In this document: piece by piece, positions 28,283-44,048 of the stretch
Numbering within the stretch: the first letter of the stretch is position 1
How the letters are laid out: each line of letters opens with the position of its first letter
Origin: an uncultured Kofleriaceae bacterium
GTDB lineage: Bacteria > Myxococcota_A > Polyangia > Haliangiales > Haliangiaceae
DNA: 64,000 nt
Assembly (NCBI GenBank): GCA_964617845.1
Contig: CAZUAR010000003.1
Location: forward strand, 69,908-133,907
Reading direction: 5' to 3'
The notes under the pieces: generated by a model
Database searches by the model: none
Told to the model about the DNA's origin: nothing
What the model saw: the letters and a program-made list of their open reading frames with translations, nothing else
Made by a program: the position numbers and the translations under genes

Positions 28283-28796
28283 TCGCAGCGGCCATCGCGA
28301 GGCGGTGATCGGCGTTCCACGGCGGGCCGAGCTTCTTGCCGGTCTCGCGCACCACCTTGTCGACGCCCGGCGCGGACAGCACCGTCTTTGCGTCGAACCA
28401 CACAATCCTCCACCCGAGCTCGCGCGCGGCCTTCGCCAGCGCCTGGCGATACATGATCCAGTCCGCGTTGTTCTGCGCCCAGTAGTCCGTGATGCGCTCC
28501 TCGATCGTCGCGGGCAGCTCGGGACACACGCGGAGCGCGATCGTCGAAATCTTCACGTCGCCCGCGAGTTCCTTCAACGCCGCGAGCGAACATTTCTCCG
28601 CCGACACGCGCACACGCTCGACGAGCGCCACGCCCTCGTCGAGCGGCAACAGCTGCGCCTCGGTGTGATGCGGGATCGCGGGCAAGCCGTCCTCCACCAA
28701 CGTGACGCGACGGCGATCCACGAGCGCGCCGTCCGCGACCGTCACCAGCACGGCCCAACCGCCGTGATCCGACACGCTGACGACTGCATTCACCAT
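28164..28796 (-). CDS. hypothetical protein
   Basis: 210-aa ORF with a natural-looking composition for the first about 170 aa. Its Arg-rich tail overlaps the convergent lipoprotein gene by about 118 bp, so the true 3' end may differ. Confidence 0.4.
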   Translation of the reverse strand: MVNAVVSVSDHGGWAVLVTVADGALVDRRRVTLVEDGLPAIPHHTEAQLLPLDEGVALVERVRVSAEKCSLAALKELAGDVKISTIALRVCPELPATIEERITDYWAQNNADWIMYRQALAKAARELGWRIVWFDAKTVLSAPGVDKVVRETGKKLGPPWNADHRLAMAAAITAVAAPAVGRRVHRRSRRTAASGRTPARSAPRSRARRS

Positions 28797-28805
28797 GCAG
28801 CGATT

Positions 28806-29108
28806 CTAGCGGACGAGGTCGTGATCTATCTCGTAGGCGCCTCGCGAGAACACATCGTCCATCCTCGGCCCGAACCCGCTCGTGATCGTCGCGTACGACT
28901 TCGCTGGATGCCCGCACAGCGATCGCACGAGCTTCACGTGCGTCTGCCCGCCACGCACCGCGATCGTCAGCGCGCGCGAGCGCCAGACGAACCCACTCGG
29001 CGCCGGATCGCACCTGCCCCGTTCGCCGACCAGCTCGTCGATAGCAGCACCAAGCGCACGCGATCGAGCGCGACCTCGATTGCCACGCGTGGCCACCAGG
29101 GCCGTCAC
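28806..29108 (-). CDS. small hypothetical protein
   Basis: 100-aa ORF ending 10 bp upstream of the next same-strand gene. No recognisable family. Confidence 0.2.
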   Translation of the reverse strand: MTALVATRGNRGRARSRALGAAIDELVGERGRCDPAPSGFVWRSRALTIAVRGGQTHVKLVRSLCGHPAKSYATITSGFGPRMDDVFSRGAYEIDHDLVR

Positions 29109-29169
29109 TCGATCGTTCCCGACCGCCAGCCGCTCCGCGCGAGATGGCCGATACTGTCAAGGGCACGCT

Positions 29170-29634
29170 ATGACGACGACGTTCGCGATTCACCTCCTGC
29201 GCCCTCGGTCTGGTTGGGTCGACGTCGATCTCACCCTCGGCGCGCATCGCGTCCATTTCGCCGCGTCGCACGTCCTGAACGATCCGGTCGAGGAGCTGGC
29301 GGGGTTCGGCTTGTTGCTCATGCAGCCACCAGACGTCGCTCGGCCATCCGTCAGGTTCTGGCTCGAACCGGCCGGGTACGAGCTGCTGGCCTCCGAGGAA
29401 GATCCCACCGAGCTTCGTCTTCGGTATGCGAAGAACGCATATCCGCGGCTCGACGATCCGATCGACGTGACGCGCATGCGTCTACCTCGAAGGACATGCG
29501 GCGCGGAGATCGCGCGCTGCCTCAGAAGCGCGAGCGCGGAGTTCGTCCAAGCGCGCAGCGAGAATCGCCACGCGTGGAACCAACCCTTCCCCGAAGAGCT
29601 CCTCTCGTTGCTGGAGTCGACGCTCCGCAATTGA
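29170..29634 (+). CDS. hypothetical protein
   Basis: 154 aa from ATG 29170 (MTTTFAIHLLRPRSGWVDVDL...). Mixed hydrophobic/charged composition typical of a globular protein. No family recognised. Confidence 0.4.
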   Translation: MTTTFAIHLLRPRSGWVDVDLTLGAHRVHFAASHVLNDPVEELAGFGLLLMQPPDVARPSVRFWLEPAGYELLASEEDPTELRLRYAKNAYPRLDDPIDVTRMRLPRRTCGAEIARCLRSASAEFVQARSENRHAWNQPFPEELLSLLESTLRN

Positions 29635-29646
29635 CGCCTTCGTTCA

Positions 29647-30384
29647 TCATCGACGCTTTGATTTCCGGCGGGGTAGTGGCCTGACCGCCGGAGCTTCTCC
29701 GAGCCGGAGCAAGCCGTGACGGCGCCATCCGACGCGCAGCAACCACACCGTCGCCGGCGCGCACGGGTTCAGCATCGACACGAGCTCGCGCTTCCACCAC
29801 GAATCGATCACGAGTGGCTGTGCCCACCCGTCGAACCACGCGGCGCTCGAGCACGGATCGAACCACGTCGGATCATCGAACGAGCTCGGCGCGTGATGAA
29901 GCGCGTTGTTCAGCACGTAGCGCAACGCGTTCCGCACCTCGGTCGGCGTCCGCAACGGACGGCAGTGATAACGATCACCAAACACGGATCCACGCCGACC
30001 TACGATTCGATTGATCGCTCTCGCGACGCGCACCTCGAACGCGGCGATCCCCGAGCTCCGCGCCAGGTCGTGCGCTGATTCGGTGATGAGGTGCAGGTGG
30101 TTCGACTCGACGTTGAAGTGAACGATGCGGAAGTCCGCGCGATGCGAGCGCGCGATCGCGTCGCGAATCGCGATCACGAATCGACGCTGTCGCAACGAGG
30201 GCAGCCCTTCGAGCAGCCGCAACGTGACGTGCTGCGGAAGAACCGATGCGGGGATCGATTCGCGCGCTTCATGGCCGACCCGCGACTTGCCACGCGGTCG
30301 GCCGGCGCCAGGACGCCAGCCACCGTGCCCAGACGGAACGCGTGCGTCATCGAATGTCAGTTGTGGTGATCGTCGACGACGCAC
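29647..30384 (-). CDS. IS200-like Y1 (HuH) transposase homolog (RAYT-like), second copy
   Basis: HuH motif HFNVESNHLHLITES. N-terminal GWRPGAGRPRGKS matches the RPGAGRP of the first copy. GTG start proposed at 30384. Flanked by about 30-bp direct repeats. Confidence 0.6.
   Translation of the reverse strand: MRRRRSPQLTFDDARVPSGHGGWRPGAGRPRGKSRVGHEARESIPASVLPQHVTLRLLEGLPSLRQRRFVIAIRDAIARSHRADFRIVHFNVESNHLHLITESAHDLARSSGIAAFEVRVARAINRIVGRRGSVFGDRYHCRPLRTPTEVRNALRYVLNNALHHAPSSFDDPTWFDPCSSAAWFDGWAQPLVIDSWWKRELVSMLNPCAPATVWLLRVGWRRHGLLRLGEAPAVRPLPRRKSKRR
29650..29683. repeat. flanking repeat copy 1 (ttgatttccggcggggtagtggcctgacc) with an internal hairpin TCCGGCGG-N13-CCGCCGGA
   Basis: Seen directly. 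A near-identical copy is at 30408..30438. Confidence 0.55.
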
Positions 30385-30407
30385 ACAACCGATCTCGCAC
30401 ACGAGTC

Positions 30408-30438
30408 TGATCTTGATTTCCGGCGGGGAAGTGGTCAG
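30408..30438. repeat. flanking repeat copy 2 (ttgatttccggcggggaagtggtcaggcc)
   Basis: Seen directly. About 27/30 identity to the copy at 29650. It lies immediately upstream of the transposase-like gene start. Confidence 0.55.
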
Positions 30439-30709
30439 GCCAAGTTGCTGATCACGCCGCGACGGCGATTTCGAAACTCTTCCATTCGCGCCAACGTCTT
30501 TGTTCCTCAAGCTGAGCTGCGAGGCCCCGGGGACGATCCCGCAATGATCGCTGCGGCTCATGCGGAGGCGCTACGCGCTCGCCGTTCTGAATCTTCCGCG
30601 CCATTCACAGACGGCGAATAGTGTCGACCAACACTTCGCTGCGACCATCGCGTTGGCAAAACCGAGGTCGCGGCCGTGAAGAGTCCCGTGACGTCGTCAG
30701 GTCGATGTG

Positions 30710-30760
30710 ATCAACACCAAAACAAATGCCCGCGAGGACCTCGTCGATCCCCGCGGGCTT
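30710..30760 (-). terminator. Rho-independent terminator of the rtcB-mvp operon
   Basis: On the minus strand, GCCCGCGGGGAtcgacgagGTCCTCGCGGGC (11-bp arms with one non-canonical G·T pair, 9-nt loop) is followed by AUUUGUUUUGGUGUU, 5 nt after the MVP stop codon. Confidence 0.65.
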
Positions 30761-30763
30761 CTT

Positions 30764-33244
30764 CTAGTCACCGTTGCCGTTCGTCAGCGTGAGCTTGTCG
30801 ACCAGCGGCTTGAGCGGCGTGTTGTGGAACAGGCGCGACAGCGTGTCTCCGAGCGACTCGCCCTCGACCACGCGCTGCACACCCCACGCCTCCGCCACCT
30901 TGACCAGCGTCTCGTGACGCGACAGCTGCATGAGCGCCTCGCTGAAGTTGCCCGACGCAGCCGTGAACCGCTGCACGGCGGTCTCGGCCTCGGCGCGCAG
31001 CAGCTCGATGCGCTTCTCCTGCTCGCGCGCGAAGAAGTGCAGCTCCTGCTCGCGCTCGCGCTTCACGCGCTCGATGCGCTGCCCCAGCTTGAACGACTCG
31101 ATCGACTGCTCCGCCTCCACCAGCTTCTTGCGCTCGTCGGTCTCGCGCAGCGTGTTGGCGATGCGAGCGAGAGCCGTTGCCAGCTCGCTCGTTGCCAGCT
31201 CGCGCGCGAGGTCGTCGGTGCGCATCTTGGTGAGGGCCTTGACCTCCGCCGTTTCGCGCATGATCGCCTCGCGCTGCTTGGTGACCGAGAGCTCGCGGCT
31301 CAGGTTGGACACGTCGATGTTCGACTTCACGACGTCATGCTGTGCCGCCTCCAGCAGCGCGCGGATCTTGTCGTCCTTCAGGGCTACCTGGAGGACGTCG
31401 ACATCCTGGATGCGCATGCCGTTGGCGGGGAACTCCATGCCGGCGATCAGGGAACGGATCGTGTCCGTCGAGGTCGAGTAGAACTGCTCGACGGTCAGCT
31501 TGCGGACGGCGCCCTTCAGCGTCGAGCGAACGTGGTCGCACAGGTACTTCACGTAGTTCTCGACGGCGAACCACTTGAGCGGGTCGCCGGCGAAGCTCAC
31601 GCGGTAGGACATGCGCAGCTGGACATAGACGTGGTCGAAGGTCTCGACCTCGACGATGTCCGTGACCTGGTTGTTCTCGACGCGAAGGAACGGAGTCTCG
31701 AGGAGCTTGTCCGTCGTCTTCGGCTTGCCCGTGGAGAGCGTCAGCGCCTCGATGGTCTCGTCGTAGTCGAGCAGCACCGTGGTGGGACCCACCTCGACGC
31801 GGCGGCGGCCCGTCTTCGCCGTCACGAGGACTGCGTAGCCGGTCCACACCGCGAGCTGCGGGGCACCCTGGTACTTGTTGTCGAGCAGCGCCATGCGCGG
31901 CTGCGAGTACGTCGACGCGCGAGAGAACTCGTCGGCGACGAGCGCCTGGTCACCCGAGACGCGAGACGACTCCATCACCATGCCGGCCGCGGCCTTCGCC
32001 ACACGCTTGCCGCCGCGCTCCACGTCGCCCTCGGAGAGGACGCCCTGGCGCGTGGTGGGAACGTTGTGGATCAGCTGACGCAGCGACTGGTTGTAGGCGA
32101 GCGCCTCGGCGTTGCCGGGGTACCAGAGCGCGCACTCGCGATCGGTGAGCACGCGGCGGACGATCACTTCGTGACGCGGGTCCGGCAGGAGCATGGCGGG
32201 GCCCCGCACCGTCCGGATCGCACCCGTGAGGCGGTCCATCACGTAGCGGGCTTCGCCCGCGGGGATGGCCGTCGCGAAGTGCTTCGCCTTGCCGTCGTAC
32301 TTGATCGCCGAGTGCTCCTCGCGCGGGAAGTAGATCGCCGTGTCCTTGCCGGTGATGAAGAGCTCATCGCCGGCGCGGTGCGCGACGCCGTTCTCCGTGT
32401 AGTCCGCGATCACCTTGATGTGAAGGCCCTGGATCTCGTTGAGCTCGACCGCACGGAACTTCTTGCTCGGACGACCTCCGTCGTCGCGAGCTTCGACGAA
32501 CCGCTCGGTGGGCAGCGGAAACACGACCTGCGGACCGACCTCGTAGCGCTTCTTGCCGTTCTCGTCGACGAGGATCGCGTACTCGAGACGCTCGAGGGTC
32601 AGCGCTTCACGCGCGTACCACTCGCCGTCGCGAACGACCTCGATTCCCGTCGGCGGGATGTAGAACGAGACTTCGGTGCCGCGGATGATGAGCTGCTTGC
32701 CGACCGTGAGGTCCTGCGGCGCCGACGACACGGCCGTTGCCGGAGCAACAACCTCGCCGTCGACAGCCGCGGGCTTCACGACCGCCTTGCTCCAGTTCTT
32801 GCGCGCCTCGTCTTCGTTGTAGACGCGGACGAGCAGGTACTGGTTCGAGCGCAGGTGATGACCCTCGACGACCTCGGCTGCCTGACCCGGCCACAGTGCA
32901 AACGTGGCGGGGCCCGGCACGATGATCGTGCGACCGATCTCCTGTTCGGCGCTCGGCTGCGCGCTTCCCTCGTCGGGATGCTTGTTCCCCTTCGCCGGGT
33001 TGCGAAGGATGATGTAGTGACCTTCCGCTGCGATCGGCGAGATACGCATCGCCTCCTCGAGTGAGGACGCCGTGCGGAACGTGTTCTTCTCCGCGTCGTA
33101 GATCACCGGCCGCTCCTGCGCGGTCGGGTTGATCACGGTCGGACCCGAGTACGTCTTCACGACGCCCTTGGTCACGTCCTGCATGTACGCGTAGCTGCCG
33201 GGCGGCAGTACGAGGTCCCGCTTCTGTACTTCTGACATTGCCAT
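30764..33244 (-). CDS. mvp: major vault protein (MVP) homolog
   Basis: 826 aa. The N-terminal MVP repeat pattern (MAMSEVQKRDLVLPPGSYAYMQDVTKGVVKTYSGPTVINPTAQERPVIYDAEKNTFRTA... with repeated beta-rich about 55-aa vault repeats) is followed by a shoulder and a long coiled-coil cap-helix region (ELSVTKQREAIMRETAEVKALTKMRTDDLARELA...). Architecture and length match eukaryotic MVP, whose bacterial homologs are rare. Confidence 0.88.
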   Translation of the reverse strand: MAMSEVQKRDLVLPPGSYAYMQDVTKGVVKTYSGPTVINPTAQERPVIYDAEKNTFRTASSLEEAMRISPIAAEGHYIILRNPAKGNKHPDEGSAQPSAEQEIGRTIIVPGPATFALWPGQAAEVVEGHHLRSNQYLLVRVYNEDEARKNWSKAVVKPAAVDGEVVAPATAVSSAPQDLTVGKQLIIRGTEVSFYIPPTGIEVVRDGEWYAREALTLERLEYAILVDENGKKRYEVGPQVVFPLPTERFVEARDDGGRPSKKFRAVELNEIQGLHIKVIADYTENGVAHRAGDELFITGKDTAIYFPREEHSAIKYDGKAKHFATAIPAGEARYVMDRLTGAIRTVRGPAMLLPDPRHEVIVRRVLTDRECALWYPGNAEALAYNQSLRQLIHNVPTTRQGVLSEGDVERGGKRVAKAAAGMVMESSRVSGDQALVADEFSRASTYSQPRMALLDNKYQGAPQLAVWTGYAVLVTAKTGRRRVEVGPTTVLLDYDETIEALTLSTGKPKTTDKLLETPFLRVENNQVTDIVEVETFDHVYVQLRMSYRVSFAGDPLKWFAVENYVKYLCDHVRSTLKGAVRKLTVEQFYSTSTDTIRSLIAGMEFPANGMRIQDVDVLQVALKDDKIRALLEAAQHDVVKSNIDVSNLSRELSVTKQREAIMRETAEVKALTKMRTDDLARELATSELATALARIANTLRETDERKKLVEAEQSIESFKLGQRIERVKREREQELHFFAREQEKRIELLRAEAETAVQRFTAASGNFSEALMQLSRHETLVKVAEAWGVQRVVEGESLGDTLSRLFHNTPLKPLVDKLTLTNGNGD

Positions 33245-33253
33245 TCTCCTCTC

Positions 33254-34474
33254 CTAGCCCTTCACGCAGACGATCTGCTTCAGGGTGTAAACGACGTCGA
33301 CGAGGTCGGCCTGCGCCGCCATCACGTCGTCGATCGACTTGTATGCAGCAGGCGTCTCGTCGATGACGTCTGCGTCCTTGCGGCACTCGACACCCGCCGT
33401 CGCTGCGGCGTGATCCTCGAGCGTGAACAGCTTCTTTGCCTTCGTGCGCGACATCGAGCGGCCCGCGCCGTGCGAGCACGACGTGAACGACTCGGGGTTA
33501 CCCTTCCCGCGAACGATGAACGACTTCGCGCCCATCGAGCCCGGGATGATGCCGAGCTCACCCTCGCGCGCACGCACCGCGCCCTTGCGGGTCACGATCA
33601 CGTTCGCGCCGTAGTGATGCTCGAACGACACGTAGTTGTGGTGGCAGTTGACGGCTTCGAGGTGAGCGGTGAACGCCGGCAGCAGGCCCGTGTTGCGAAG
33701 CGCCTCGATCGTGGCCGCCATCATCAGCTCGCGGTTGGTGCGCGCGTACTGCTGCGCCCACTCGACCGCGTGCACGTAGTCGTCGAACAGCTCCGAGCCC
33801 TGCGGCAGGTACGCGAGGTCCTCGTCCGGCAGGTTCACGAACCAGCGACGCATCTCTGCCTTCGCGCGCTCGATGAAGTACGAGCCGATGCGGTTACCCA
33901 CACCGCGCGAACCCGAGTGCAGCATCACCCACACCGCGCCTGCCTCGTCGAGGCACAGCTCGATGAAGTGGTTGCCCGTGCCGAGCGTACCGAGCTGGTT
34001 CACGCGCTGCGCGTTACCCGCCGAAGCGTGCTTCGACAGGATCTGCGCGTAGCCCGGAGCGAGCTCGTCCCACGCGGCGATCGTGCGCGCCGGCGGCGTG
34101 CCGTACGCACCGCGGTCGTTCGCGCCGCCCTTGTCGGTGCGGCCGTGCGGAACCGCCGACTCGATCGCGAGGCGCAGCGCGCGGAGGTCATCCGGGAGCT
34201 GGTCCGCGCGAAGCGACGTCTTCACCGCCATCATGCCGCAGCCGATGTCGACGCCGACCGCCGCCGGGATGACCGCGCGCTTGCACGCGATCACCGAGCC
34301 GACCGTTGCACCGATGCCCGCGTGCACGTCCGGCATGACCGCGATCCACTGGTGAACGAACGGGAGCGCTGCCACGCGGCGCAGCTGCGCCTCCGCCTCC
34401 GGCTCGAACGGGACGCCCTGCGTCCACGCCTTGATCGGAGCGAAGTCGGTGTTGATGAGGTGGTAGTTCGTCAT
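33254..34474 (-). CDS. rtcB: RNA-splicing ligase RtcB (3'-phosphate/2',3'-cyclic phosphate RNA ligase)
   Basis: 406 aa. The conserved metal/GTP-binding motifs DIGCGMM, GTGNHF, HSGSRG and HNY...NCHHNY are all present. Its stop lies 10 bp upstream of the MVP start. Confidence 0.95.
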   Translation of the reverse strand: MTNYHLINTDFAPIKAWTQGVPFEPEAEAQLRRVAALPFVHQWIAVMPDVHAGIGATVGSVIACKRAVIPAAVGVDIGCGMMAVKTSLRADQLPDDLRALRLAIESAVPHGRTDKGGANDRGAYGTPPARTIAAWDELAPGYAQILSKHASAGNAQRVNQLGTLGTGNHFIELCLDEAGAVWVMLHSGSRGVGNRIGSYFIERAKAEMRRWFVNLPDEDLAYLPQGSELFDDYVHAVEWAQQYARTNRELMMAATIEALRNTGLLPAFTAHLEAVNCHHNYVSFEHHYGANVIVTRKGAVRAREGELGIIPGSMGAKSFIVRGKGNPESFTSCSHGAGRSMSRTKAKKLFTLEDHAAATAGVECRKDADVIDETPAAYKSIDDVMAAQADLVDVVYTLKQIVCVKG

Positions 34475-34486
34475 GGCGAGCCGGCC

Positions 34487-34506
34487 CTGTGCAGCTCGCG
34501 AACCAA
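34487..34506 (-). promoter_or_regulatory. candidate sigma-54 promoter (TGGttc-N5-cTGCA, GG-N10-GC spacing) for rtcB-mvp
   Basis: The reverse complement of 34489-34505 reads TTGGTTCGCGAGCTGCA, about 15 nt upstream of the rtcB ATG. Divergent rtcR encodes a sigma-54 enhancer-binding protein (known RtcR biology). The match to TGGCAC-N5-TTGCA is imperfect. Confidence 0.45.
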
Positions 34507-34581
34507 CCTGCTCGCTGTGTGATTGCCAACGGTTGCGATGTCTGTCGATATCGAAGGCGATAGCGTATTATCCTTTTGGAT

Positions 34582-36153
<1,572 letters not shown>

Positions 36154-36239
36154 TCGCCCTCCGGATGCGCTCGCACCGGCCGCCCGACCTTCCACGCGGA
36201 TCCAGACGAGCTTCTTCAGCTCGCGATCCGATCGTCATG

Positions 36240-37565
36240 TCACGCCCTCGCGAGCAAACGGTGCCCGAGGTTCGAGCCCGGGCGATGCACGAAGCGCTCG
36301 TTCAGGTAGTGACGGGCGAGGTCGCGCCGGCCGCTGCGCCGCGCTGACTCGGCGATCGTCAGCGTGATGAGATCGCGCTGCGCATGGCTGCCTCCGAAGC
36401 GATGCGCGATGTCGCGAACCGCCTCGAGCTGGACGAGCGCTCGTCTGTCGTCCCCGCGCGCGAACGCCGCGAAGCCCCGCGCCAGCGGCAGACCGACCTC
36501 GCGCGCCATGCCGGCGTTGGTGGTCGCACCGACCGCGGCGGACTCCAGGTCGTGCACCACGCGGCTCGTCAGCTCTTCGCGATCGGTCATCGCGAAGGCC
36601 AGCATGGCGTGGACGTCGTTGAACGCGTAGAACCCCCGCTCGCCATCGAGCTTGGATTCCCACGCCTTCGCGACGCGCTCCGCACGCGAGCGCACGTCGA
36701 TGCCGAGCAGGTGCATGCGCCACAGAAGCGACGAGGCGTCCACCAACACGAGCGCGATGTCGATGTCCTCGGGGAAGATGTCGCGATCGTAGATCTCCAG
36801 CACCTTCGCGTCGTCTCCACGGTCGAGATAGAGGAGCGCGCGATGCCAGTGGTTGTGGAACGCGAAGCCGTTGCCGGTCCACTGCGGCATCCGCGACTCG
36901 AGCCACGTCATCCCTTCGGCGATCTTCCCCTGCATCTCGAAGCAGTGCAGGCCGGCATGGATCGCCCACGCATCGGTTGGCTCGATCTCGAGCGCGCGGC
37001 TCGCGGTCTCGAGCGCCTCGTCATATTGGTTGCACTCCTCGAGACCGAACGCGTGGAACCCGAGCACGTAGCTGTATCCGGGGATTCGCGGCGACCACGA
37101 TGGCAGCACGCGCGAGATCCGGTTGCGCAGGTTGATCGCGTCGCCGCGGGCGAAGTCGAACAGGTGGGCGATCTGGATCGCGACCACATCACGCGGGTTC
37201 GCGACCAGCGCGCGATCGAGCGCGACGTTCGCGCCGTGCCAGTCGCCGTCGACCAGCTTGCGCAGTGCGATGGCGAGCGCGGCCTCGCGATCGTTCGCGA
37301 CGTTGCGCTCGACCAGGGCCTCGAGCGCGCCGACGTTGACCCGAGCCATCTCGAAGAACCGAGCCTCGGCCAACGAGATCAGCGCGGCAGCGCGGAGCGC
37401 GTGTCCCATCGCGAAGTCGGGCTGCGCTTCGAGCGCGCGATCGAGCGTCGCGACCGGATCGCCGACGTACGACTGGAACTGCCGGAGCGCCTGCTCGAAC
37501 AGATCGAGGGTGGGTTTGTCGTCGAGCGAGATCGGAGCGCCGCGGGTATCGAGATTCTTCGTCAT
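36240..37565 (-). CDS. TPR-repeat protein
   Basis: 441 aa starting MTKNLDTRGAP with a perfect AGGAGG RBS. Multiple TPR-like helical repeats (YDEALETASRALEIEPTDAWAIHAGLHCFEMQGKIAEG etc.). Confidence 0.7.
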   Translation of the reverse strand: MTKNLDTRGAPISLDDKPTLDLFEQALRQFQSYVGDPVATLDRALEAQPDFAMGHALRAAALISLAEARFFEMARVNVGALEALVERNVANDREAALAIALRKLVDGDWHGANVALDRALVANPRDVVAIQIAHLFDFARGDAINLRNRISRVLPSWSPRIPGYSYVLGFHAFGLEECNQYDEALETASRALEIEPTDAWAIHAGLHCFEMQGKIAEGMTWLESRMPQWTGNGFAFHNHWHRALLYLDRGDDAKVLEIYDRDIFPEDIDIALVLVDASSLLWRMHLLGIDVRSRAERVAKAWESKLDGERGFYAFNDVHAMLAFAMTDREELTSRVVHDLESAAVGATTNAGMAREVGLPLARGFAAFARGDDRRALVQLEAVRDIAHRFGGSHAQRDLITLTIAESARRSGRRDLARHYLNERFVHRPGSNLGHRLLARA

Positions 37566-37596
37566 GACATCCTCCTGAGTGCTTTCCTCCCTGGCG

Positions 37597-37611
37597 TTCC
37601 ACGGCGTGGAA
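37597..37611. promoter_or_regulatory. palindrome TTCCACG-g-CGTGGAA in the divergent intergenic region
   Basis: Seen directly between the TPR gene and the STAND NTPase gene, 28 nt upstream of the proposed ATG at 37639. Confidence 0.3.
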
Positions 37612-37638
37612 CAACCGTTCCGCGGTAGTTTCGAGCAC

Positions 37639-40600
37639 ATGGATGCGCTGGTCGGTCGAGACCGCGAGCTCGCGCAGCTCGTCGAGGCGGCGCGGATCGC
37701 GAGCGCCGGCCAGCGGGCGATCGTGATGATCAGCGGCGAGCCGGGGATCGGAAAGACACGTCTCCTGGAGGAGATCGCCGCGACGATCGAGCAGGAGGGC
37801 GGGACGGCAGCATGGGGCCGCACGTGGGAGGTCGGGATGACCCCGGCGTTCTGGCCGTGGACACAGCTGCTCGCGCTGCTGGCCACGCCGGACGATCCCG
37901 CCCCCGAGCTGGTCGGGCTCGACGACCGCGCCGACGCCGCCACGCGCCTCGCGCGGTTCGACGCCGTCGCCGTGTTCCTGACTCGCCGAGCCGCGCACCG
38001 ACCGCTCGCGCTGCTGTTCGACGACATGCACGCGGCGGATCCATCGTCGCTGCTGCTCGTCGAGTACCTCGCCCGGCAGGTGCGCGCGGCGCGACTCCTG
38101 ATCGCGATCACGGCGCGCGATGGCGAGGCGCCGCCCGAGAGCGAGGCCGCGCTCGCGCGGATCCGGCGCGACGCCCGGCGGATCGTCGTCGGGCGCCTCG
38201 CTGCCGAGGATGTCGCGCGCTTCGTCGGCGAGCGCGCGGACGCCGCGATGATCGCCAGGGTGTACGAGCTGTCGGATGGCAACCCGCTGTTCGTCGAGGA
38301 GCTGGTCGCCTGCATCGAAGCGCATGGCGATCTCGATCGCGTCGGGCAGATCACCGGGGTCCGCGCGGTGATCCGCGATCGCATCGCGCGACTTCCCGAG
38401 GTGTCCGCGACCATCCTCGGAGCCGGCGCGCTCGCCGGTCGCGAGTTTCGTGGCGTCGTGGTCGCGGACGCGCTCGATATCGCGCCTCGCGACCTCGACG
38501 CGCACCTCGCACCGGCGTTGCGGCTCGGCGTGATCACGCGCGCCGGACCCGATCGGTACCGGTTCTCGCATGGCCTCGTCGCGGAATCGCTGGCGGAGCA
38601 GGGGCACGTTCTGCACGCGCGACTCGCCGACGCACTCGAGCGGCTCGAGGGTGACGACGGCGCCTCCGCGATCGCACATCACCGCCTCGCGATCGCGCAC
38701 CTCGATCCGATCGCCGCCGCGACGTCTGCCGAGCGTGCGGCCCGCGTCGCGCTCGCACACCTCGCGTTCGAGGACGCGGCGGCCCTGCTCGACCGCGCGA
38801 TCGGCGCTCTCCCCGATGCTCCCGCGACCCGCAAGCAACGCGCCGCCCTGATCTGCGCACGCGCCGAGGCCCTCCAGCACGCCGGCGAGCACACGACCGC
38901 GCGCGAGCTCTGCGATCGCGCCGCCGAGCTCGCTCGCGAGACTGGAGACGGTGTCTTGCTCGCACGCATCGCGCTCGCGCGCGGGATCGAGTTCCACTTC
39001 GGCTCGACGGATCGCGGCCTCGTCGAGCTCTTGCGAGAGGCGCTCGCCGCGATGCCGCCCGGGGACTCGAGCCTGCGTGCCCGATGCCTCGCACGTCTCG
39101 CCGCCGCCGAGCAGCCCGCCACCGACTCGCGGATCCCGATCGAAGCCGCGCGCGATGCGATCGCGATGGCGCGCCGGATCGGCGAGCGCCGGACGCGGCT
39201 CGACGTACTTCACGTCGCGTTCGCGGCGTTGATCGAGTACGTGCCACCGCAAGAGCTCGACGTGCTCCTCCGCGAGCTGTTCGTGCTGGCCTCCAGCCCC
39301 GGCGATCGCCTGATCGCCCTGCGCAACCGGTTGCGCCATTGCTTCGTCGCGCTCGAGCTCGGCGATCGCACCGCGTTCGAGGCGGCCGCGTTCGCCCATG
39401 CCGAGCTGGCCGAGAGCATCGGCATGCCGCGCTGGCTCTGGCCGGTCAAGCTGATCGCCTCGATGCAGGCCACGTTCGAGGGCCGATTCGCCGAGGCCGC
39501 CGCCCTCACGAGTGAAGCCGAAACGATCGGTGCCGGTGATCCGCAGGGCGAACGCACGTTCACCTATCACCGCTGGGCAACCGCGTGGATCGCGACGCGA
39601 CCGAGCGCGACGCTCGCGCGGCGTGTCGGCGAGTGCTACGCGTACGCGCGCCCGGTGATGTCGATCGTCGCCGCGCTCGACGAACAGGATCACGCGACCC
39701 TGCATTCCGCGATCGCCGCCGCTACCCCGCTCGTGGAGCACGACGCGTTCTCGGCGACCGCCCTCGCCGACGCGATCGCGATGTATCGTGATCGCGAGCT
39801 GGCGCACCGGTGCTACGACCTGATCGCGCAGCAGTCCTGCCGGATCTGGGTCGCGACCATGACCGGCTTCGCTCTCCAGGACTTCGCCGATCGTTGCTTG
39901 CTCGTGCTCGCCACCGTCCTCGAGCGGTGGGACGCGGTCGATCAGCATGCTCGCATCGCGCTCGAGCTAGCGCGCAGGCTCGACGCTGTTCCGTGGATCG
40001 CGCGGATCCAGGCCGACTGGGCCACCGCGCTCGATGCGCGAGGCGATCGCGCTCGCGCCGACGAGCTCTGGGATGCGGCGCGCGCGGTGGCCGAACGACT
40101 CGACATGCCGGGTCTGGCCGCGCGCTGTCGCGCAGCCCGCGCGGGTCACACCGAAGCGACGGCGCCGCACGTCCCGCCCACCAGCATCGATGTCCCTGCC
40201 ACCGAGGAGCTCTCCATCTCCCGCGATGGTGCGCTCTGGGTCATCCGCGGGCGCGGCACGATCGCGCGTGTCCGCGATTCGCGCGGCATGCAGATGCTCG
40301 CGCGCCTGATCGGCGAGCCCGGATGCGAGGTGCACGCGATCGATCTCGACGGAGATGGCGGGACCGCCGACGGCGGCGACGCCGGCGAGATGCTCGATCC
40401 GAAGGCCAAGGCGGCCTACCGCAAGCGACTCGCAGAGCTGACGCAGGACCTCGAGGAGGCCGAGGCCTGGCGCGATGCCGAGCGTGCGGAGCGAGTGCGT
40501 CTGGAGATCGACGCGCTCGCGCGCGAGCTATCGCGCGCCGTCGGGCTCGGTGGACGCGACCGCCGCGTCGGGGCCGCTGCCGAGCGCGCGCGGATCAACG

Positions 40601-40719
40601 TGCAGCGTCGGATCGCCTACGCGATCCAGCAGATCAAGAGCTCCGCCCCGCCGCTCGGCGAGCATCTCGCAGCACGGATCCGTACCGGCACGTGCTGCAT
40701 CTACGACCCACACGCGTGA
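37639..40719 (+). CDS. STAND/MalT-like AAA+ NTPase with C-terminal TPR-like helical repeats and no HTH
   Basis: Walker A ISGEPGIGKTRLLEE, then Walker B LLFDDMHAADP and a GNPLFVEEL motif typical of LuxR-type large ATP-binding (MalT/LAL) STAND NTPases. A helical repeat region of about 700 aa follows. No DNA-binding domain is recognisable. Alternative GTG start at 37579. Confidence 0.7.
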   Translation: MDALVGRDRELAQLVEAARIASAGQRAIVMISGEPGIGKTRLLEEIAATIEQEGGTAAWGRTWEVGMTPAFWPWTQLLALLATPDDPAPELVGLDDRADAATRLARFDAVAVFLTRRAAHRPLALLFDDMHAADPSSLLLVEYLARQVRAARLLIAITARDGEAPPESEAALARIRRDARRIVVGRLAAEDVARFVGERADAAMIARVYELSDGNPLFVEELVACIEAHGDLDRVGQITGVRAVIRDRIARLPEVSATILGAGALAGREFRGVVVADALDIAPRDLDAHLAPALRLGVITRAGPDRYRFSHGLVAESLAEQGHVLHARLADALERLEGDDGASAIAHHRLAIAHLDPIAAATSAERAARVALAHLAFEDAAALLDRAIGALPDAPATRKQRAALICARAEALQHAGEHTTARELCDRAAELARETGDGVLLARIALARGIEFHFGSTDRGLVELLREALAAMPPGDSSLRARCLARLAAAEQPATDSRIPIEAARDAIAMARRIGERRTRLDVLHVAFAALIEYVPPQELDVLLRELFVLASSPGDRLIALRNRLRHCFVALELGDRTAFEAAAFAHAELAESIGMPRWLWPVKLIASMQATFEGRFAEAAALTSEAETIGAGDPQGERTFTYHRWATAWIATRPSATLARRVGECYAYARPVMSIVAALDEQDHATLHSAIAAATPLVEHDAFSATALADAIAMYRDRELAHRCYDLIAQQSCRIWVATMTGFALQDFADRCLLVLATVLERWDAVDQHARIALELARRLDAVPWIARIQADWATALDARGDRARADELWDAARAVAERLDMPGLAARCRAARAGHTEATAPHVPPTSIDVPATEELSISRDGALWVIRGRGTIARVRDSRGMQMLARLIGEPGCEVHAIDLDGDGGTADGGDAGEMLDPKAKAAYRKRLAELTQDLEEAEAWRDAERAERVRLEIDALARELSRAVGLGGRDRRVGAAAERARINVQRRIAYAIQQIKSSAPPLGEHLAARIRTGTCCIYDPHA

Positions 40720-40725
40720 CCGCGA

Positions 40726-41484
40726 TCAGAACGCCAGCACGTGCCAGCTCGGTCGCTGCTCGACACCGTCGCAGTCGTGCCCGCCCATCCCGAGCCCTGT
40801 CTTGAACAAGATCACGCGTCCCGATGCGCTCGCGCCGACGAGCTCGAACGCGGGCAGGTTGCACCGAGGCGGCGCACTCCACGCGGCCTCCGTATCCGTG
40901 CGCTCGACGAGGACGCGCCCCGAGGCATCCTCCACGCGGATCTGGGACGGCGGCAGCCACGTGTTGCCGTCGCTGCGCCGCTTGTAGCGCGCGGTATACG
41001 TGCCGAACGTGAGCTCCGTCTCGGAGCTGATATCGGAGAGCTCGCGTACGTTGCGGATCGGCGGCTCGAGCCTCGACCACGCGTGCTTCGCCAGCTCGCG
41101 ATTGACGGTGATCGCCGCGACCCTCGCGTCCGCCCCGGCGCCGGCGATCGGGAGCCACCGCACGCTCGTGCCCGTTCGATCGAGCAGCCGCACGCCGGGG
41201 ACCGGGACGTGTCCCCATCCATCGCGCTCCTCGGCGACCGCGACGAGCTCTCCGTCCTGCGTGACCGCGGGCAGCTGGAGGAAGCGCAGCGGAGCGGCGC
41301 CCTCGCGCAGTTGATCCTCGCAGTCGGGGCAGACCGCCCACTCCGCGTCGCTGAAGATCTCGACGGACGGCACCACGCCGACCACCGCGGTCACCGTGGA
41401 TGTATTGGCCGGAGGCTCGGCCGTCGGGCGCTCCGCGTTCCAGCAGCCAGCGACGAGGACCAGGAGCGCGAGGCGAGCGTGCAT
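40726..41484 (-). CDS. hypothetical lipoprotein
   Basis: MHARLALLVLVAGC lipobox. 252 aa. Confidence 0.5.
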   Translation of the reverse strand: MHARLALLVLVAGCWNAERPTAEPPANTSTVTAVVGVVPSVEIFSDAEWAVCPDCEDQLREGAAPLRFLQLPAVTQDGELVAVAEERDGWGHVPVPGVRLLDRTGTSVRWLPIAGAGADARVAAITVNRELAKHAWSRLEPPIRNVRELSDISSETELTFGTYTARYKRRSDGNTWLPPSQIRVEDASGRVLVERTDTEAAWSAPPRCNLPAFELVGASASGRVILFKTGLGMGGHDCDGVEQRPSWHVLAF

Positions 41485-41514
41485 TTCGCTGCCATAACGG
41501 ATCGCCGACCGAGC

Positions 41515-41949
41515 CTATTCACGGTGACGACGCTCGGAGAGAACGAGCTGCGAGCAGGTCTCGTCGGGCTCGCTCGTCCGCGGGCACAGCGAGATCGTGG
41601 AGTAGCCGGCGGCGTTGGCAGTGCCGAGGACTGCGTTGATGACGATGGCCGACGTGTCCTTGTCGGCGCGAAGCACGAGCCCGCGGTCGCTCGAGGCACC
41701 GCTATTTCCGAGCGCGTCCCGCAGCGGCGCGATCGTCTCTGCGCCAGGCGGAACGTCGGCGACCTTCACGATCTCCACGCCGTCGAGGAGCACGCGGCCT
41801 GCATCGATCGCGACCACCGGCGGACCCGCGGGCCGCGCGGTCGCGGCGCTCGCTTCTGTGGTGGTCTGCGTTTCGGTCGGCGCGGGTGTCGATCTACTGC
41901 CGCCGCATGCGACGAGCGTGCAGGCAATGGTGGTCGCGAGCAGGCGCAT
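41515..41949 (-). CDS. lipoprotein with an ExbD/TolR-like C-terminal domain
   Basis: MRLLATTIACTLVAC lipobox. LVLRADKDTSAIVINAVLGTANAAGY resembles the ExbD/TolR periplasmic domain. Confidence 0.45.
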   Translation of the reverse strand: MRLLATTIACTLVACGGSRSTPAPTETQTTTEASAATARPAGPPVVAIDAGRVLLDGVEIVKVADVPPGAETIAPLRDALGNSGASSDRGLVLRADKDTSAIVINAVLGTANAAGYSTISLCPRTSEPDETCSQLVLSERRHRE

Positions 41950-41999
41950 CGTGCGGACGTATTCTCACTTCACGTTTGCGATCACAACGCCGTCGCGAG

Positions 42000-42680
42000 C
42001 TATTCGCGGATGCCGCGCAGCACGAGCTCGACGAGCTCGGGAATAACGACCGATGCACGCGCACGCGAGACGTCGCGGCCGCGCAGGTGCGCGTAGAGGA
42101 TCGCTTCGGTCGCACCGATCACGGCCATCGCCGACACCTGCGGATCGACGTTGCGGATCAGCTTCTGCGCGCGCGCGGTCTCCGTGAGCGCGACGCCGCG
42201 CGCGGCGACCTGATCGGCGAACGCGTGCACCGCGGCGCGCGTGCCACCGGGCGGCGAGCGCGCTTCCTGGAGATAGAGCAGCACGCGAGAGGCGTGACGC
42301 GGGATCGCCTGCGAGAGCTCCATGCCGAGCTGCAGGTAGACCGCGGTCACCTGCGCGGGCTTCGCGCTTCGCAGCGCCGCTTCGCAGCGATCGAGCGCGC
42401 CGAGCGTGTCGGCGACCATCGGCTCGAGGATGCGGGCGACGAGCTCGGCCTTGTCCTCGACATAGCGGTAGAAGCTGCCCTTGGCCATGCCCGCGCGCGC
42501 GGCGATCTGGTCGATCGTGACCGCGGCGGTGCCCTCGGCGAGGAACAGGGCCAAGCCCGCCTCGCAGAGGCGATCGAGGTTCGCCTTGCGGTTGGTGTCA
42601 CGCGTGCCGCCCTCGGGCCCCGGTCGGTGCCGGGGCGTTTTCGGGGGCTTCAGTTTGGGGCTTGTCCTCGGTCGGGCCAC
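42000..42680 (-). CDS. TetR-family transcriptional regulator
   Basis: N-terminal HTH LFLAEGTAAVTIDQIAARAGMAKGSFYRYVEDKAELV. GTG start proposed at 42680; the upstream part of the ORF track extends antisense into the next gene. Confidence 0.8.
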   Translation of the reverse strand: MARPRTSPKLKPPKTPRHRPGPEGGTRDTNRKANLDRLCEAGLALFLAEGTAAVTIDQIAARAGMAKGSFYRYVEDKAELVARILEPMVADTLGALDRCEAALRSAKPAQVTAVYLQLGMELSQAIPRHASRVLLYLQEARSPPGGTRAAVHAFADQVAARGVALTETARAQKLIRNVDPQVSAMAVIGATEAILYAHLRGRDVSRARASVVIPELVELVLRGIRE

Positions 42681-42691
42681 GGAGTAATAAT

Positions 42692-42707
42692 GTGACCAAC
42701 TAGTCAC
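42692..42707. promoter_or_regulatory. inverted repeat GTGAC-caacta-GTCAC, candidate TetR operator
   Basis: Seen directly in the 45-bp divergent intergenic region, 19 bp upstream of the hydroxylase ATG. Confidence 0.45.
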
Positions 42708-42725
42708 GATTTTCAAGAGGTCGCC

Positions 42726-43271
42726 ATGCTCGGAATTCCCATCGGTCTCGTTGTCGCCAATGCCACGGAGTGGGCCTTTCACAAGTACGTGGAGCACGGG
42801 CTCGGGCTCGATCGAAAGAGCTTCTGGGCGTTCCACTGGCACGACCATCATCGGAATGCGCGACGCAACGGCAACGTCGACGCGGACTACAAGGAGCCGC
42901 TTCGCAAGTGGAACGGCCAGAGCAAGGAGGTGCTCGCCCTCACGCTCACCGGCGTCGCGCTGATGCCGCTCGCGCCGATCGCGCCGTTCTTCGTGGGCAC
43001 GATGATCTACTCGGGCATCAAGTACTACCGCGTGCACAAGCGCGCGCACCTCGATCCCGCGTGGGCGCGCGAGCACCTGCCGTGGCACTACGATCACCAC
43101 ATGGGGCCGAACCAGCACGCGAACTGGTGCGTGACGCACCCGTGGTTCGACGAGCTCATGGGCACGCGCGAGCCGTACGTCGGCACGGAGCGCGAGCAAC
43201 GCGACCGTGCGAAGCGCGAGCAGCGCGCGGCGAACGCGGACACGCCGGAGCCGGTGGCGGCGCACGGCTGA
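42726..43271 (+). CDS. fatty acid hydroxylase / sterol desaturase-superfamily membrane protein
   Basis: Three histidine boxes HKYVEH, HWHDHH, HYDHH plus hydrophobic segments. 181 aa. Confidence 0.75.
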   Translation: MLGIPIGLVVANATEWAFHKYVEHGLGLDRKSFWAFHWHDHHRNARRNGNVDADYKEPLRKWNGQSKEVLALTLTGVALMPLAPIAPFFVGTMIYSGIKYYRVHKRAHLDPAWAREHLPWHYDHHMGPNQHANWCVTHPWFDELMGTREPYVGTEREQRDRAKREQRAANADTPEPVAAHG

Positions 43272-43460
43272 TCGCGCGGGCCGCGACGCCTGCGGAGATC
43301 GTTTCCGAGGACGCACCAGTCAGGCGATTCACAGCGCTCGTGCGCCTCGCGAGATTATTCCGCCAGAAGCGCGTTCCTCGACGCGCCAATTGATCGTTCC
43401 GACGCGCCACGCGCTCGAATCGAGTTGACCTCCTCCGACGGGATTCACTACAACCCGCGC

Positions 43461-44048
43461 ATGATCGCTCGCTCGGTGGTGTTCGCTGTCGTGCTCGTCG
43501 GTTGTGCCGCGCAGGATCAACAGGTCACGCCGAACTGGGCCGCTGCGCCACCGCCGCCGTACGGATACGGCACGCCGCAGCTGCCGCCCGCGGGCGCGCC
43601 GCCGCCGCCGTACGGTTATCCGCAGCCGGAGGTCTACGAGACGAGCGGCGTCTACCTCTCCGCGGGCGTGACCGCGAGCGCGGGCACGTATCCCGCGACG
43701 CCCGTGTATGAGGGTCACCCGGCGTCGAGCTGCAAGCTCGGTTCGGATGGTCGTCGAGCGTGCGGCTACGACTGCAAGCTCGGCTCCGACGGTGTCGCCG
43801 CGTGCGCGAGCGATCCGGGCGGCGCGTGCGCCCTCGGCGCGGATGGTCGCGTGTATTGCTCCGAGGGTCGCTCGCGCCGCGGTCATCGGCGCCACAGCGG
43901 CGCAAAGGCCGAGTGCAAGCTCAACTCGGACGGCACGCAGACGTGCGGGCACGGCTGCAAGCTCGGAAGCCGTGGACGCTGGTACTGCGCATCGGAGCCC
44001 GGCGGCACGTGCGGCTTGAACAGCGACGGCACGTACACCTGCTCCTGA
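43461..44048 (+). CDS. Cys-repeat lipoprotein (CKLGSDG-type repeats)
   Basis: MIARSVVFAVVLVGCA lipobox. The N-terminal PPPYGYP repeats are followed by six CKLGSDGxxACG-like cysteine repeats. Confidence 0.55.
   Translation: MIARSVVFAVVLVGCAAQDQQVTPNWAAAPPPPYGYGTPQLPPAGAPPPPYGYPQPEVYETSGVYLSAGVTASAGTYPATPVYEGHPASSCKLGSDGRRACGYDCKLGSDGVAACASDPGGACALGADGRVYCSEGRSRRGHRRHSGAKAECKLNSDGTQTCGHGCKLGSRGRWYCASEPGGTCGLNSDGTYTCS

Follow-up and report, generated by a model that had tools for sequence, protein, structure and literature searches.

We lean towards the view that the divergent gene pair at positions 36240–40719 of the window (the whole stretch of DNA analysed, 64,000 nucleotides) consists of a regulator and its target, and that the larger product, a STAND NTPase, is a MalT-like transcription factor, gated by a signal, whose new output domain would bind DNA. 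The NTPase is most likely a variant of an ordinary transcription switch rather than an effector-less oddity.

A conserved divergent gene pair

An earlier note on this DNA had described a 441-aa TPR protein encoded divergently, across 73 bp, from a 1026-aa MalT/LAL-type STAND NTPase. Both open reading frames and their coordinates are as claimed:

36240–37565, minus strand: TPR-family gene (441 aa), apparently monocistronic, convergent with rtcR; probable regulated target
37566–37638: divergent intergenic region (73 bp), which holds the shared control site
37570–37575, minus strand: Shine-Dalgarno-like GGAGGA of the TPR gene (reverse complement of the plus strand)
37639–40719, plus strand: STAND NTPase gene (1026 aa), divergent from the TPR gene

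The TPR gene starts at an ATG (CAT at 37563–37565), with GGAGGA upstream of it; the CTCC core of this Shine-Dalgarno sequence is retained in the window and in loci L001, L002 and L006, the intergenic regions of L168 and L169 being too short. The NTPase reading frame opens at a GTG (37579), and the ATG at 37639 is the start conserved across orthologues. As the note also said, the pair lies just after rtcR (34576–36153, plus strand; Pfam RtcR, 9e-69), which ends 87 bp from the TPR gene and is convergent with it; a TetR gene is found about 1.3 kb past the NTPase gene.

Conservation of the gene pair had been set beforehand as a test, and both pair and palindrome recur in orthologous loci. The pair was found at eight loci in total, with differing flanks: the window, L001, L002, L006, L168, L169, the P0008 contig and P0265 (98% identity).

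Architecture of the NTPase and its C-terminal domain

The NTPase is organized as follows:

37639–38193, plus strand: P-loop nucleotide-binding domain (NBD; residues 1–185), with Walker A at 37735–37758
38203–38592, plus strand: helical domain (HD; GNPLFVEEL), then winged-helix domain (WHD) of the STAND module (residues 189–318)
38605–40143, plus strand: alpha-solenoid (TPR/SUPR-like) sensor domain (residues 323–835)
40213–40704, plus strand: C-terminal conserved domain (CDOM; residues 859–1022), probable DNA-binding output

It has the traits of the MalT/AAA_16 clade of STAND proteins: Walker A (GEPGIGKT, residues 33–40), Walker B (LLFDDMH, read from the translation, with D129 invariant), a predicted HD and WHD, and a C-terminal TPR/SUPR repeat sensor. 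Among 48 homologues, G214, N215, P216, L217, F218 (the GNPLF motif, residues 214–218) and E221 are invariant. The full-length AF2 model (pLDDT 90.2) comprises NBD, HD, WHD, solenoid, a disordered linker (residues 838–855) and CDOM. Its secondary structure (helices 189–250, 254–266, 272–278 and 283–296; strands 269–271, 299–303 and 306–309) predicts a helix/beta-hairpin unit (254–318) directly after helices 189–250, corresponding to HD plus WHD. No significant relative of the whole NTPase was found among PDB sequences, and the Pfam lists of 120 homologues contained NTPase families only.

The note had further stated that the NTPase lacks both an N-terminal effector and a LuxR HTH, and the Pfam search bears this out. 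There is no N-terminal effector because the AAA_16 match (residues 4–155, 2.7e-21) begins at residue 4; a LuxR/GerE HTH is absent from the NTPase, and residues 788–1026 are without any Pfam family at E ≤ 10. A standard C-terminal LuxR HTH hidden by a frameshift was not found either: homologues are colinear across 100% of the length, so that there is no frameshift to correct. The present protein has a long alpha-solenoid sensor like MalT domain III; whereas members of the MalT/LAL family carry a C-terminal LuxR/GerE HTH, it ends in CDOM, a domain of about 170 residues with a different predicted fold and without an earlier description as a family.

CDOM, with 10,608 representatives, turns up within short proteins of stand-alone size, behind AAA_16 NTPases, behind TPR-only proteins and, in one case, N-terminally; it is therefore a separate module. 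The CDOMs linked to TPR genes do not form one clade, as they are not mutual closest relatives by identity ranking. An Arg/Asn/Gln-rich helix, ERARxNVQRR, is invariant and makes a DNA-binding fold plausible. Foldseek comparison of CDOM with the PDB gave nothing significant (best E 0.45), and neither did the profiles of CDOM and of its N-half against PDB sequences. The SARP-type STAND regulators (AfsR, EmbR-like; OmpR-type wHTH plus BTAD, with or without NTPase and TPR) have their output at the N terminus, whereas CDOM is C-terminal, and no profile similarity between the two is detectable. Indeed, neither Trans_reg_C nor BTAD matched the NTPase or its C terminus in Pfam, and alignment of CDOM with 18 SARP domains (hhalign) gave a probability of 0.2, the aligned part being the putative recognition helices only and not significant.

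A three-half-site putative operator

The palindrome reported in the intergenic region is real and one base longer per side than first described, GTTCCACG-g-CGTGGAAC at 37596–37612. This sequence has no other match in the 64-kb window, even with three mismatches permitted. An 8+1+8 palindrome within 73 bp is only mildly improbable by chance; it rises above chance because it is conserved in six orthologous intergenic regions with differing flanking bases. Across these six loci, GGCGTTCCA and TGGAAC are invariant, and the central 5 nt and the flanks vary. CACG-N-CGTG was considered as the conserved core and rejected, since L168 and L169 show a variable centre and conserved outer hexamers. The phylogenetic footprint reads GTTCCA-N5-TGGAAC-N4-GTTCC, followed by a TAnnnT box just upstream of the NTPase start:

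37593–37622, plus strand: three-half-site putative operator, GGC-GTTCCA(37596–37601)-cggcg-TGGAAC(37607–37612)-aacc-GTTCCG(37617–37622)
37626–37631, plus strand: -10-like hexamer TAGTTT, 7 nt ahead of the STAND start codon

The half-site centres are 11 bp and 10 bp apart. By eye, the TAnnnT box is present in six of six orthologues (TAGTTT three times, TAGGGT, TAAGTT and TAGGTT), 4–5 nt past the third half-site (13 nt in L002) and 7–13 nt before the start codon; judged by the position of this hexamer, the NTPase mRNA would be leaderless or have a very short leader. A scan of 37300–37900 for the sigma-70 consensus gave no full promoter, and no sigma-54 or ECF-type spacing was seen by eye. The arrangement, three hexamers in forward–reverse–forward order, is unlike MalT boxes; by its inverted pair it also differs from the sites of SARPs, which are direct repeats only.

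In the 1.48 Mb of DNA searched, TTCCR-N5-YGGAA occurs 17 times, and in 11 of these cases it stands in the regulatory region of a STAND-CDOM gene. In L003, L004, L007 and L098, where a small secreted-protein gene replaces the TPR gene, the motif precedes a paralogous STAND-CDOM operon; the site therefore follows the NTPase and not the TPR gene. In two distant CDOM lineages the half-sites differ (GTGACC in L029, GTGAGA in L075 and L077) and the layout, H-N5-rcH-N3-H, is kept. That the operator is flipped in these three loci was ruled out: parsed as H-N5-rcH-N3/4-H, it has an identical orientation with respect to the regulator gene in all cases. The background of the architecture H6-N5-rcH6-N3/4-H6 is 0.23 per kb. 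The architecture is absent from all SARP-type and AraC-type loci of the TPR family, and in generic triple half-site searches, which are too noisy in 70% GC DNA, it was not enriched upstream of about 27 other CDOM genes from metagenomes. The operator rule is thus supported only for this clade and the two distant lineages, and no general rule is claimed.

Genomic position provides a further line of evidence. Relatives of the TPR gene were compared at 80 loci for the gene that lies upstream and divergent. At 19 of them it encodes a SARP(wHTH+BTAD)-cyclase-AAA16-TPR protein or a SARP protein of shorter length, at 9 a DJ-1/AraC regulator and at 3 a CDOM protein; CDOM proteins therefore occupy the position of known DNA-binding regulators. 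That CDOM proteins stand in for SARP and AraC regulators there speaks against the view that CDOM is instead an oligomerization module, a module binding RNA polymerase or a sigma factor, or another protein-interaction module, the site then belonging to an unlinked factor or consisting of promoter elements such as back-to-back GGAAC-type ECF -35 boxes. We regard that view as unlikely: the site accompanies the STAND-CDOM gene in two different gene contexts, the architecture is retained with non-GGAAC half-sites in the distant CDOM loci, and no conserved ECF-type -10 is found at the proper spacing.

We therefore propose, tentatively and with slightly less than even confidence, that CDOM is an unrecognized and very widespread DNA-binding output (more than 10,000 clusters at 50% identity). 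STAND transcription factors with this domain would then form a third class, next to LuxR-type (LAL/MalT) and SARP-type ones, and the domain would read a forward–reverse–forward array of three hexamers one helical turn apart. Its specificity may reside in the invariant ERARxNVQRR helix and/or in a derived OmpR-like recognition helix.

The TPR-family protein as probable target

The note had set the 441-aa protein against the background of STAND NTPases that act with TPR partners; that it is a typical partner of this kind is not supported by its family. Only weak, single TPR matches were obtained (TPR_14/TPR_11 at residues 175–215, Pfam), and no solved structure in the PDB is a sequence relative. 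The 4136 homologues are 55–60% identical in Rokubacteria, Gamma- and Betaproteobacteria and Oligoflexus, and the family is rich in invariant His, Asp, Glu and Arg residues; the invariant polar residues include H203, H207, H237, H241, N316-D317-x-H319 and GGSHAQRD at 391–398. TTC38/StaR-like TPR proteins, which we take as a lead to possible relatives, presumably share with it a length of about 440–470 aa, a single recognizable TPR, high cross-lineage conservation and His-rich invariant motifs. None of the homologues bears the name TTC38, databases calling them only 'tetratricopeptide repeat protein', and the literature searched on TTC38, StaR, CDOM-like STANDs and MVP with RtcB yielded nothing of relevance. 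Since its gene faces SARP-cyclase-AAA16 or AraC-type regulators elsewhere, it looks like a regulated target and not a sensor partner. The family is cross-phylum and enzyme-like, and its gene is probably the regulated target of the NTPase. As a corollary of CDOM being a new output domain, the protein could be an inducible enzyme, a suggestion that we hold a little short of an even chance.

Could the TPR protein instead work with the NTPase in signalling (as co-sensor, anti-activator or ligand presenter), the pair regulating distant genes and the intergenic site being autoregulatory only? MalT itself is subject to the anti-activators MalY, Aes and MalK; TPR folds commonly mediate protein contacts, every orthologue at ≥62% identity shows the TPR–NTPase pairing, and the TPR family recurs beside three unrelated classes of large sensors or regulators. 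Moreover, the operator has a precise position with respect to the NTPase promoter, whereas its distance from the TPR start codon ranges from 3 to about 31 nt; autoregulation is therefore better anchored than control of the TPR gene. Against this, the family is far wider and more conserved across phyla than any neighbouring regulator, its many invariant residues are of the kind expected in an enzyme or small-molecule pocket, simple AraC-type regulators are among its divergent neighbours (the classic regulator-and-target layout), and paralogous STAND-CDOM proteins function without a TPR protein. We consider a signalling partner improbable. Note that such a role is partly compatible with that of a regulated target.

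A defence role, also raised in the note, would make the pair an anti-phage or conflict (Avs-like) system with CDOM as effector and the TPR protein as accessory. It is common for defence systems to have a STAND NTPase with a C-terminal repeat sensor, and the NTPase family is expanded in Myxococcota (2580 relatives found). However, PADLOC gave no meaningful match, the only one being a marginal P-loop (mad8, E 1e-3), and no nuclease, protease, TIR or other toxic domain was found in the pair (Pfam, NCBIfam, PADLOC; isolated C terminus at E ≤ 10). The flanks of the pair loci are ordinary chromosomal genes and not defence islands, the sensor is MalT-like, the partner is a conserved, housekeeping-like protein, and the conserved operator indicates transcription control, all of which makes defence very improbable.

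Finally, proximity is all that favours the neighbouring RtcR or TetR regulator as the binder of the palindrome, and this suggestion can practically be set aside: the site is invariant in L001, L002, L006, L168 and L169, where neither gene adjoins, it travels with paralogous NTPases lacking the TPR gene, and the target of rtcR is its own divergent neighbour rtcB, which has a sigma-54-like promoter. The adjacency of rtcR is incidental, and the rtcR and TetR neighbours are unrelated to the TPR/NTPase unit.

Proposed mechanism and significance

With the pair seen as regulator and target, the following sequence of events can be envisaged. In the resting, ADP-bound state, the sensor would keep the NTPase closed. 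A ligand, possibly a substrate or product of the TPR-family protein encoded next to it, would bind the solenoid, and nucleotide exchange and oligomerization would then gather several CDOMs, by analogy with MalT and AfsR. These would occupy the conserved GTTCCA-N5-TGGAAC-N4-GTTCCG site, whose half-sites are about one helical turn apart. The putative operator is centred near the -35 of the NTPase promoter and immediately upstream of the divergent TPR gene, and binding could control both promoters, the NTPase being autoregulated and the TPR gene induced or repressed.

Bacteria with complex lifestyles, myxobacteria and actinomycetes among them, have large STAND regulators in abundance, and these often control secondary metabolism. 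To our knowledge, those that lack a LuxR or SARP domain carry no annotation beyond 'AAA family ATPase' and are overlooked as regulators. If CDOM is their DNA-binding output, thousands of such proteins would become interpretable and would bring with them a testable operator rule: three hexamers ahead of the gene that encodes the regulator. Through this unit, a conserved, enzyme-like TPR family also becomes more accessible; its gene has acquired dedicated regulators of at least three unrelated kinds, and should the TPR protein be an inducible enzyme, the several sensors dedicated to it could show what its substrate is.

Two divergent genes flank a palindromic site

The window has a GC content of ~69%, and its closest database relatives bear the names Kofleriaceae, Polyangiaceae or Myxococcota. 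An earlier note had described a 441-aa TPR gene divergent from a 1026-aa STAND NTPase gene next to rtcR, with a palindrome between the two, and we recovered both ORFs, the 73-bp gap and the palindrome:

36240–37565, minus strand: TPR gene (441-aa ORF; ATG complementary to 37563–37565, with GGAGGA ahead of the start)
37639–40719, plus strand: STAND NTPase gene (1026-aa ORF)
40726–41484, minus strand: lipoprotein-like ORF (lipobox LVAGC)
41515–41949, minus strand: lipoprotein-like ORF (lipobox LVACG)

The NTPase starts at ATG 37639, which is common to the orthologues, the ORF itself opening earlier, at GTG 37579. The palindrome, GTTCCACG-g-CGTGGAAC, lies at 37596–37612 and is the sole match in the window when 3 mismatches are allowed. 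The rtcR gene, whose 3' end is at 36153, is convergent with the TPR gene, and the NTPase gene is followed by the two convergent lipoprotein-like ORFs, neither of which gave a family match, and then by a TetR gene. From the mapped ORFs, the convergent rtcR gene and the convergent downstream ORFs, the unit therefore apparently consists of two monocistronic genes placed back to back.

On its other side, rtcR (region 34475–36153) is divergent from rtcB (33254–34474, minus strand), after which comes, on the same strand, an 826-aa major-vault-protein-like gene (30764–33244, minus strand; Pfam MVP_shoulder, 1.3e-20, and Vault_3, 3.6e-12). Given this gene order, the divergent rtcR and a sigma-54-like TGGTTC-N5-CTGCA element ahead of rtcB (reverse complement of 34481–34496), a bacterial homologue of vault proteins seemingly belongs to the RtcR regulon here. 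In 26000–44000, no Y RNA, vault RNA or other Rfam RNA scored above threshold. Downstream of the vault-like gene lies a 304-aa ORF (29647–30561, minus strand) with a weak match to IS200-like Y1 transposases (E 1.1e-3).

The NTPase ends in a compact conserved domain

The NTPase contains Walker A (GEPGIGKT, residues 33–40), Walker B (LLFDDMH) and GNPLFVEEL motifs; Pfam recognizes in it AAA_16 (residues 4–155, 2.7e-21) and a weak TPR_12 alone, to which NCBIfam and PADLOC added nothing useful. An AlphaFold2 model of the full-length protein, built with 48 homologues as input (pLDDT 90.2, pTM 0.78), predicts the following succession:

Residues 1–185: P-loop domain
Residues 189–250: helical domain
Residues 254–318: winged helix
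Residues 323–835: alpha-solenoid
Residues 838–855: disordered linker
Residues 859–1022: compact last domain (hereafter CDOM)

The protein had been called effector-less. This stands as regards a LuxR HTH: Pfam at E ≤ 10 returned no family, LuxR HTH included, for the last 239 residues, and because the gene is intact and its homologues are colinear with it across 100% of its length, no frameshift conceals such a domain. It probably does not stand as regards an output, the C-terminus being occupied by the compact, conserved CDOM. Lacking the LuxR HTH, a LAL feature, the NTPase falls outside the LAL family; nor does it demonstrably belong to the SARP family.

CDOM is a modular and widespread domain. 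With residues of the NTPase as query (the last 190), exhaustive HMMER searching retrieved 10,608 cluster representatives (E ≤ 1e-3), of which 1,569 reach E ≤ 1e-30. Its position is C-terminal in 258 of the 262 proteins examined, which comprise proteins of 160–250 aa (possibly including fragments), AAA_16 NTPases of ~1000–1100 aa and shorter AAA_16 proteins. It is N-terminal once (P0198, residues 5–169 of 1058, ahead of an AAA_16 NTPase), and it is preceded by a TPR-only region in two Rhodobacterales loci. In the source databases these proteins are 'hypothetical' or, through annotation transfer, carry the name 'serine/threonine protein kinase'; the Ser/Thr kinase names given by JGI to some short CDOM proteins (listed with P0253 and P0134) hint at kinase–AAA16–TPR–CDOM architectures.

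The invariant motifs of CDOM are G-LW, SRG, a His, GDxG..LD, Y..R, GLGGR, ERARxNVQRR and TG..C.Y.P. A model of the isolated domain (pLDDT 82.7) agrees in secondary structure with the full-length model: the domain begins with three strands and two short helices, passes through an acidic, Gly-rich loop of low confidence and a long helix, and ends in a helical bundle and one final strand. We use 'derived winged helix' for a resemblance of the predicted structure and not for family membership, because Foldseek (best E 0.45), hhalign against 18 SARP domains (probability 0.2) and CDOM profile searches of PDB sequences (no match) do not corroborate it.

The gene pair is conserved within one clade

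The TPR–NTPase pairing singled out in the earlier note is a conserved feature of one clade: a divergent TPR relative of 435–453 aa adjoins every inspectable NTPase orthologue of at least 62% identity (loci L001, 77%; L002, 68%; L006, 65%; L168 and L169, 63%; P0008 contig, 62%). The remaining neighbours differ among these loci, none of which has rtcR or the TetR gene beside the pair.

The partner gene differs where NTPase identity is 54% or below. In L003, L004, L007 and the P0010 contig, the STAND+CDOM gene is directly preceded, on its own strand, by a gene for a secreted (signal-peptide) protein of 172–202 aa (L003 5318–5926, L004 5450–5989, L007 5431–5949). These small proteins are ~50% identical among themselves, with a weak DUF1579 match, and the STAND+CDOM proteins of the same loci form a paralogous subfamily at ~50% identity. 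A Sorangium paralogue has neither partner. Some fairly close TPR relatives, in L008 (74% identical), L025 and L027, stand without an NTPase neighbour and have upstream of them a BrkB-like gene, a transposase and a metallopeptidase-like gene; seen from the TPR side, the pairing is therefore not universal even inside Myxococcota.

The TPR-family gene is kept while its putative regulator is exchanged

A word-indexed search retrieved 4136 relatives of the TPR protein, identity being still 55–60% in Rokubacteria, Gamma- and Betaproteobacteria, Tectomicrobia and Oligoflexus. The family presumably resembles TTC38/StaR-like proteins, on which the literature yielded nothing functional. An alignment of 38 sequences contains ~60 invariant columns, many of them polar (first half: R93, E94, D126, D137, R147, R149, E176, Y181, D198, W200, H203, H207, E210; second half: H237, H241, D260, D276, R283, N316, D317, H319, GGSHAQRD 391–398, E423, R424). 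Such polar invariants would suit an enzyme or a small-molecule pocket better than a scaffold. The His-rich motifs (H203, H207, H237, H241, N-D-x-H at 316–319, GGSHAQRD), kept from Streptomyces to Myxococcota, suggest a catalytic or metal/ligand site.

We then surveyed 80 genomic loci around TPR-gene relatives, with domains mapped and Pfam confirmation on examples. The direct upstream divergent gene encodes a Trans_reg_C+BTAD (SARP)–guanylate-cyclase–AAA_16–TPR protein (~1200–1300 aa) or a shorter SARP–TPR protein at 19 loci, a DJ-1/PfpI+AraC regulator at nine and a CDOM protein at three (L029, a full STAND+CDOM protein of 35–48% identity; L075 and L077, TPR+CDOM proteins); one additional locus has a SARP-type regulator on the same strand as the TPR relative. 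The giant divergent regulators (OmpR-type wHTH+BTAD+guanylate-cyclase-like+AAA_16+TPR) occur in Gammaproteobacteria and Polyangiaceae (L009, L032–L036, L039, L041, L044, L047, L048, L053, L054, L068), and the divergent DJ-1/PfpI+AraC (GlxA-like) regulators in Betaproteobacteria (L012, L015, L024, L026, L040, L043, L051, L067, L072). Across loci, the putative TPR-family target is constant and the regulator is swapped. With the target thus kept, CDOM proteins fill a slot otherwise held by proven DNA-binding regulator classes, and the TPR protein looks like a regulated target rather than a sensor partner.

A three-part site goes along with the NTPase gene

The hexamers GGCGTTCCA and TGGAAC of the intergenic palindrome are invariant across six orthologous intergenic regions, in which the five bases between them (CGGCG, CGCCG, CCGCA, TCGGG) and the flanks vary. 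In the window the two hexamers occupy 37596–37601 and 37607–37612, with a third at 37617–37622. This third half-site, CGTTCC (CGTTCT in L168), lies 4–5 nt past TGGAAC, and a TAnnnT hexamer 4–5 nt further (13 nt in L002), 7–13 nt ahead of the NTPase start codon. A consensus promoter scan of 37300–37900 found no promoter. From these spacings, the inverted pair would sit near the −35 of a putative promoter giving a leaderless or short-leader NTPase mRNA; in the window, TAGTTT would be its −10 box and the transcript would begin at A37639 or a few nt away. Because it is only 3 nt (L168) to ~31 nt (window) from the TPR start codon, the site must also overlap the putative TPR promoter or leader.

Across the 1.48 Mb of DNA examined, TTCCR-N5-YGGAA turns up 17 times, 11 of them at STAND–CDOM control regions: the six TPR-paired loci, four paralogue loci (L003, L004, L007, L098) and the window. 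At the paralogue loci the motif is placed ahead of the gene for the small secreted protein and again has a third half-site, GTKCCR, 3 nt on; the full site of this subfamily is GTTCCR-N5-TGGAAC-N3-GTKCCR. The NTPase is the only element common to the TPR-paired and secreted-protein contexts; the three-part site goes along with its gene.

The distant CDOM loci display the same architecture, in the same orientation towards the regulator gene, with different hexamers: GTGACC-N5-GGTCAC-N3-GTGACC in L029 and GTGAGA-N5-(T/C)CTCAC-N3-GTGAGA in L075 and L077. The architecture is present in three independent lineages, for a background of 0.23 per kb (both strands, at most 1 mismatch), or ~0.02–0.05 expected per intergenic region. 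With an earlier 7-mer definition, the counts were 7/7 CDOM-type TPR-family loci versus 6/77 other loci and 36/1680 shuffles. No SARP- or AraC-type locus had a CAC(G/A)-N-(C/T)GTG version beside the gene, and generic scans upstream of ~27 other CDOM genes showed no enrichment.

The TPR-linked CDOMs are not mutually closest relatives. In the GTGAGA-type proteins (L075, L077), the sequence of the ERARxNVQRR helix (NTPase residues 982–991, 40582–40611) is ERARTTVTWR, with T, T and W in place of N987, Q989 and R990, and AYRxRL, the putative recognition helix, has become ALKARI; the ERARTTVTWR change is found in exactly the proteins whose half-site is GTGAGA and not GTTCCA. These differences, seen in three groups only, suggest that CDOM helix and half-site may covary with specificity.

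A putative ligand-gated regulator

The best-supported reading, to which we give somewhat better than even chances, is that the NTPase is a MalT-like, ligand-gated, oligomerizing transcription factor that controls the divergent TPR-family gene as well as its own promoter. A presumed ligand would gate the NTPase and oligomerization would follow; the clustered CDOMs, as putative operator binders, would contact three half-sites one helical turn apart, and this binding would control both genes, with a sign of regulation that we infer. We propose that the unit may thereby work like both LAL and SARP regulators.

CDOM could instead be a protein-interaction module, the site being read by another factor or sigma. 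We consider this unlikely; the presence of the site beside STAND–CDOM genes in two gene contexts, the same architecture with other hexamers at distant CDOM loci and the regulator slot filled by CDOM proteins speak against it. A role of the TPR protein as co-sensor or anti-activator is more unlikely still. The conserved pairing is compatible with such a role, and the idea of a STAND signalling partner, held in the earlier note, fares badly against the enzyme-like invariants and the exchanged regulators (SARP, AraC, CDOM) beside its gene. A defence system is very improbable, PADLOC having added nothing useful for the NTPase. Binding of RtcR or TetR to the palindrome, also suggested earlier, is scarcely credible, the paired loci having neither neighbour and the site going along with the NTPase. 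Under the preferred reading of a ligand-gated transcription factor, the point of interest is not a missing output: it is CDOM, a putative and undescribed output domain, together with the operator logic.
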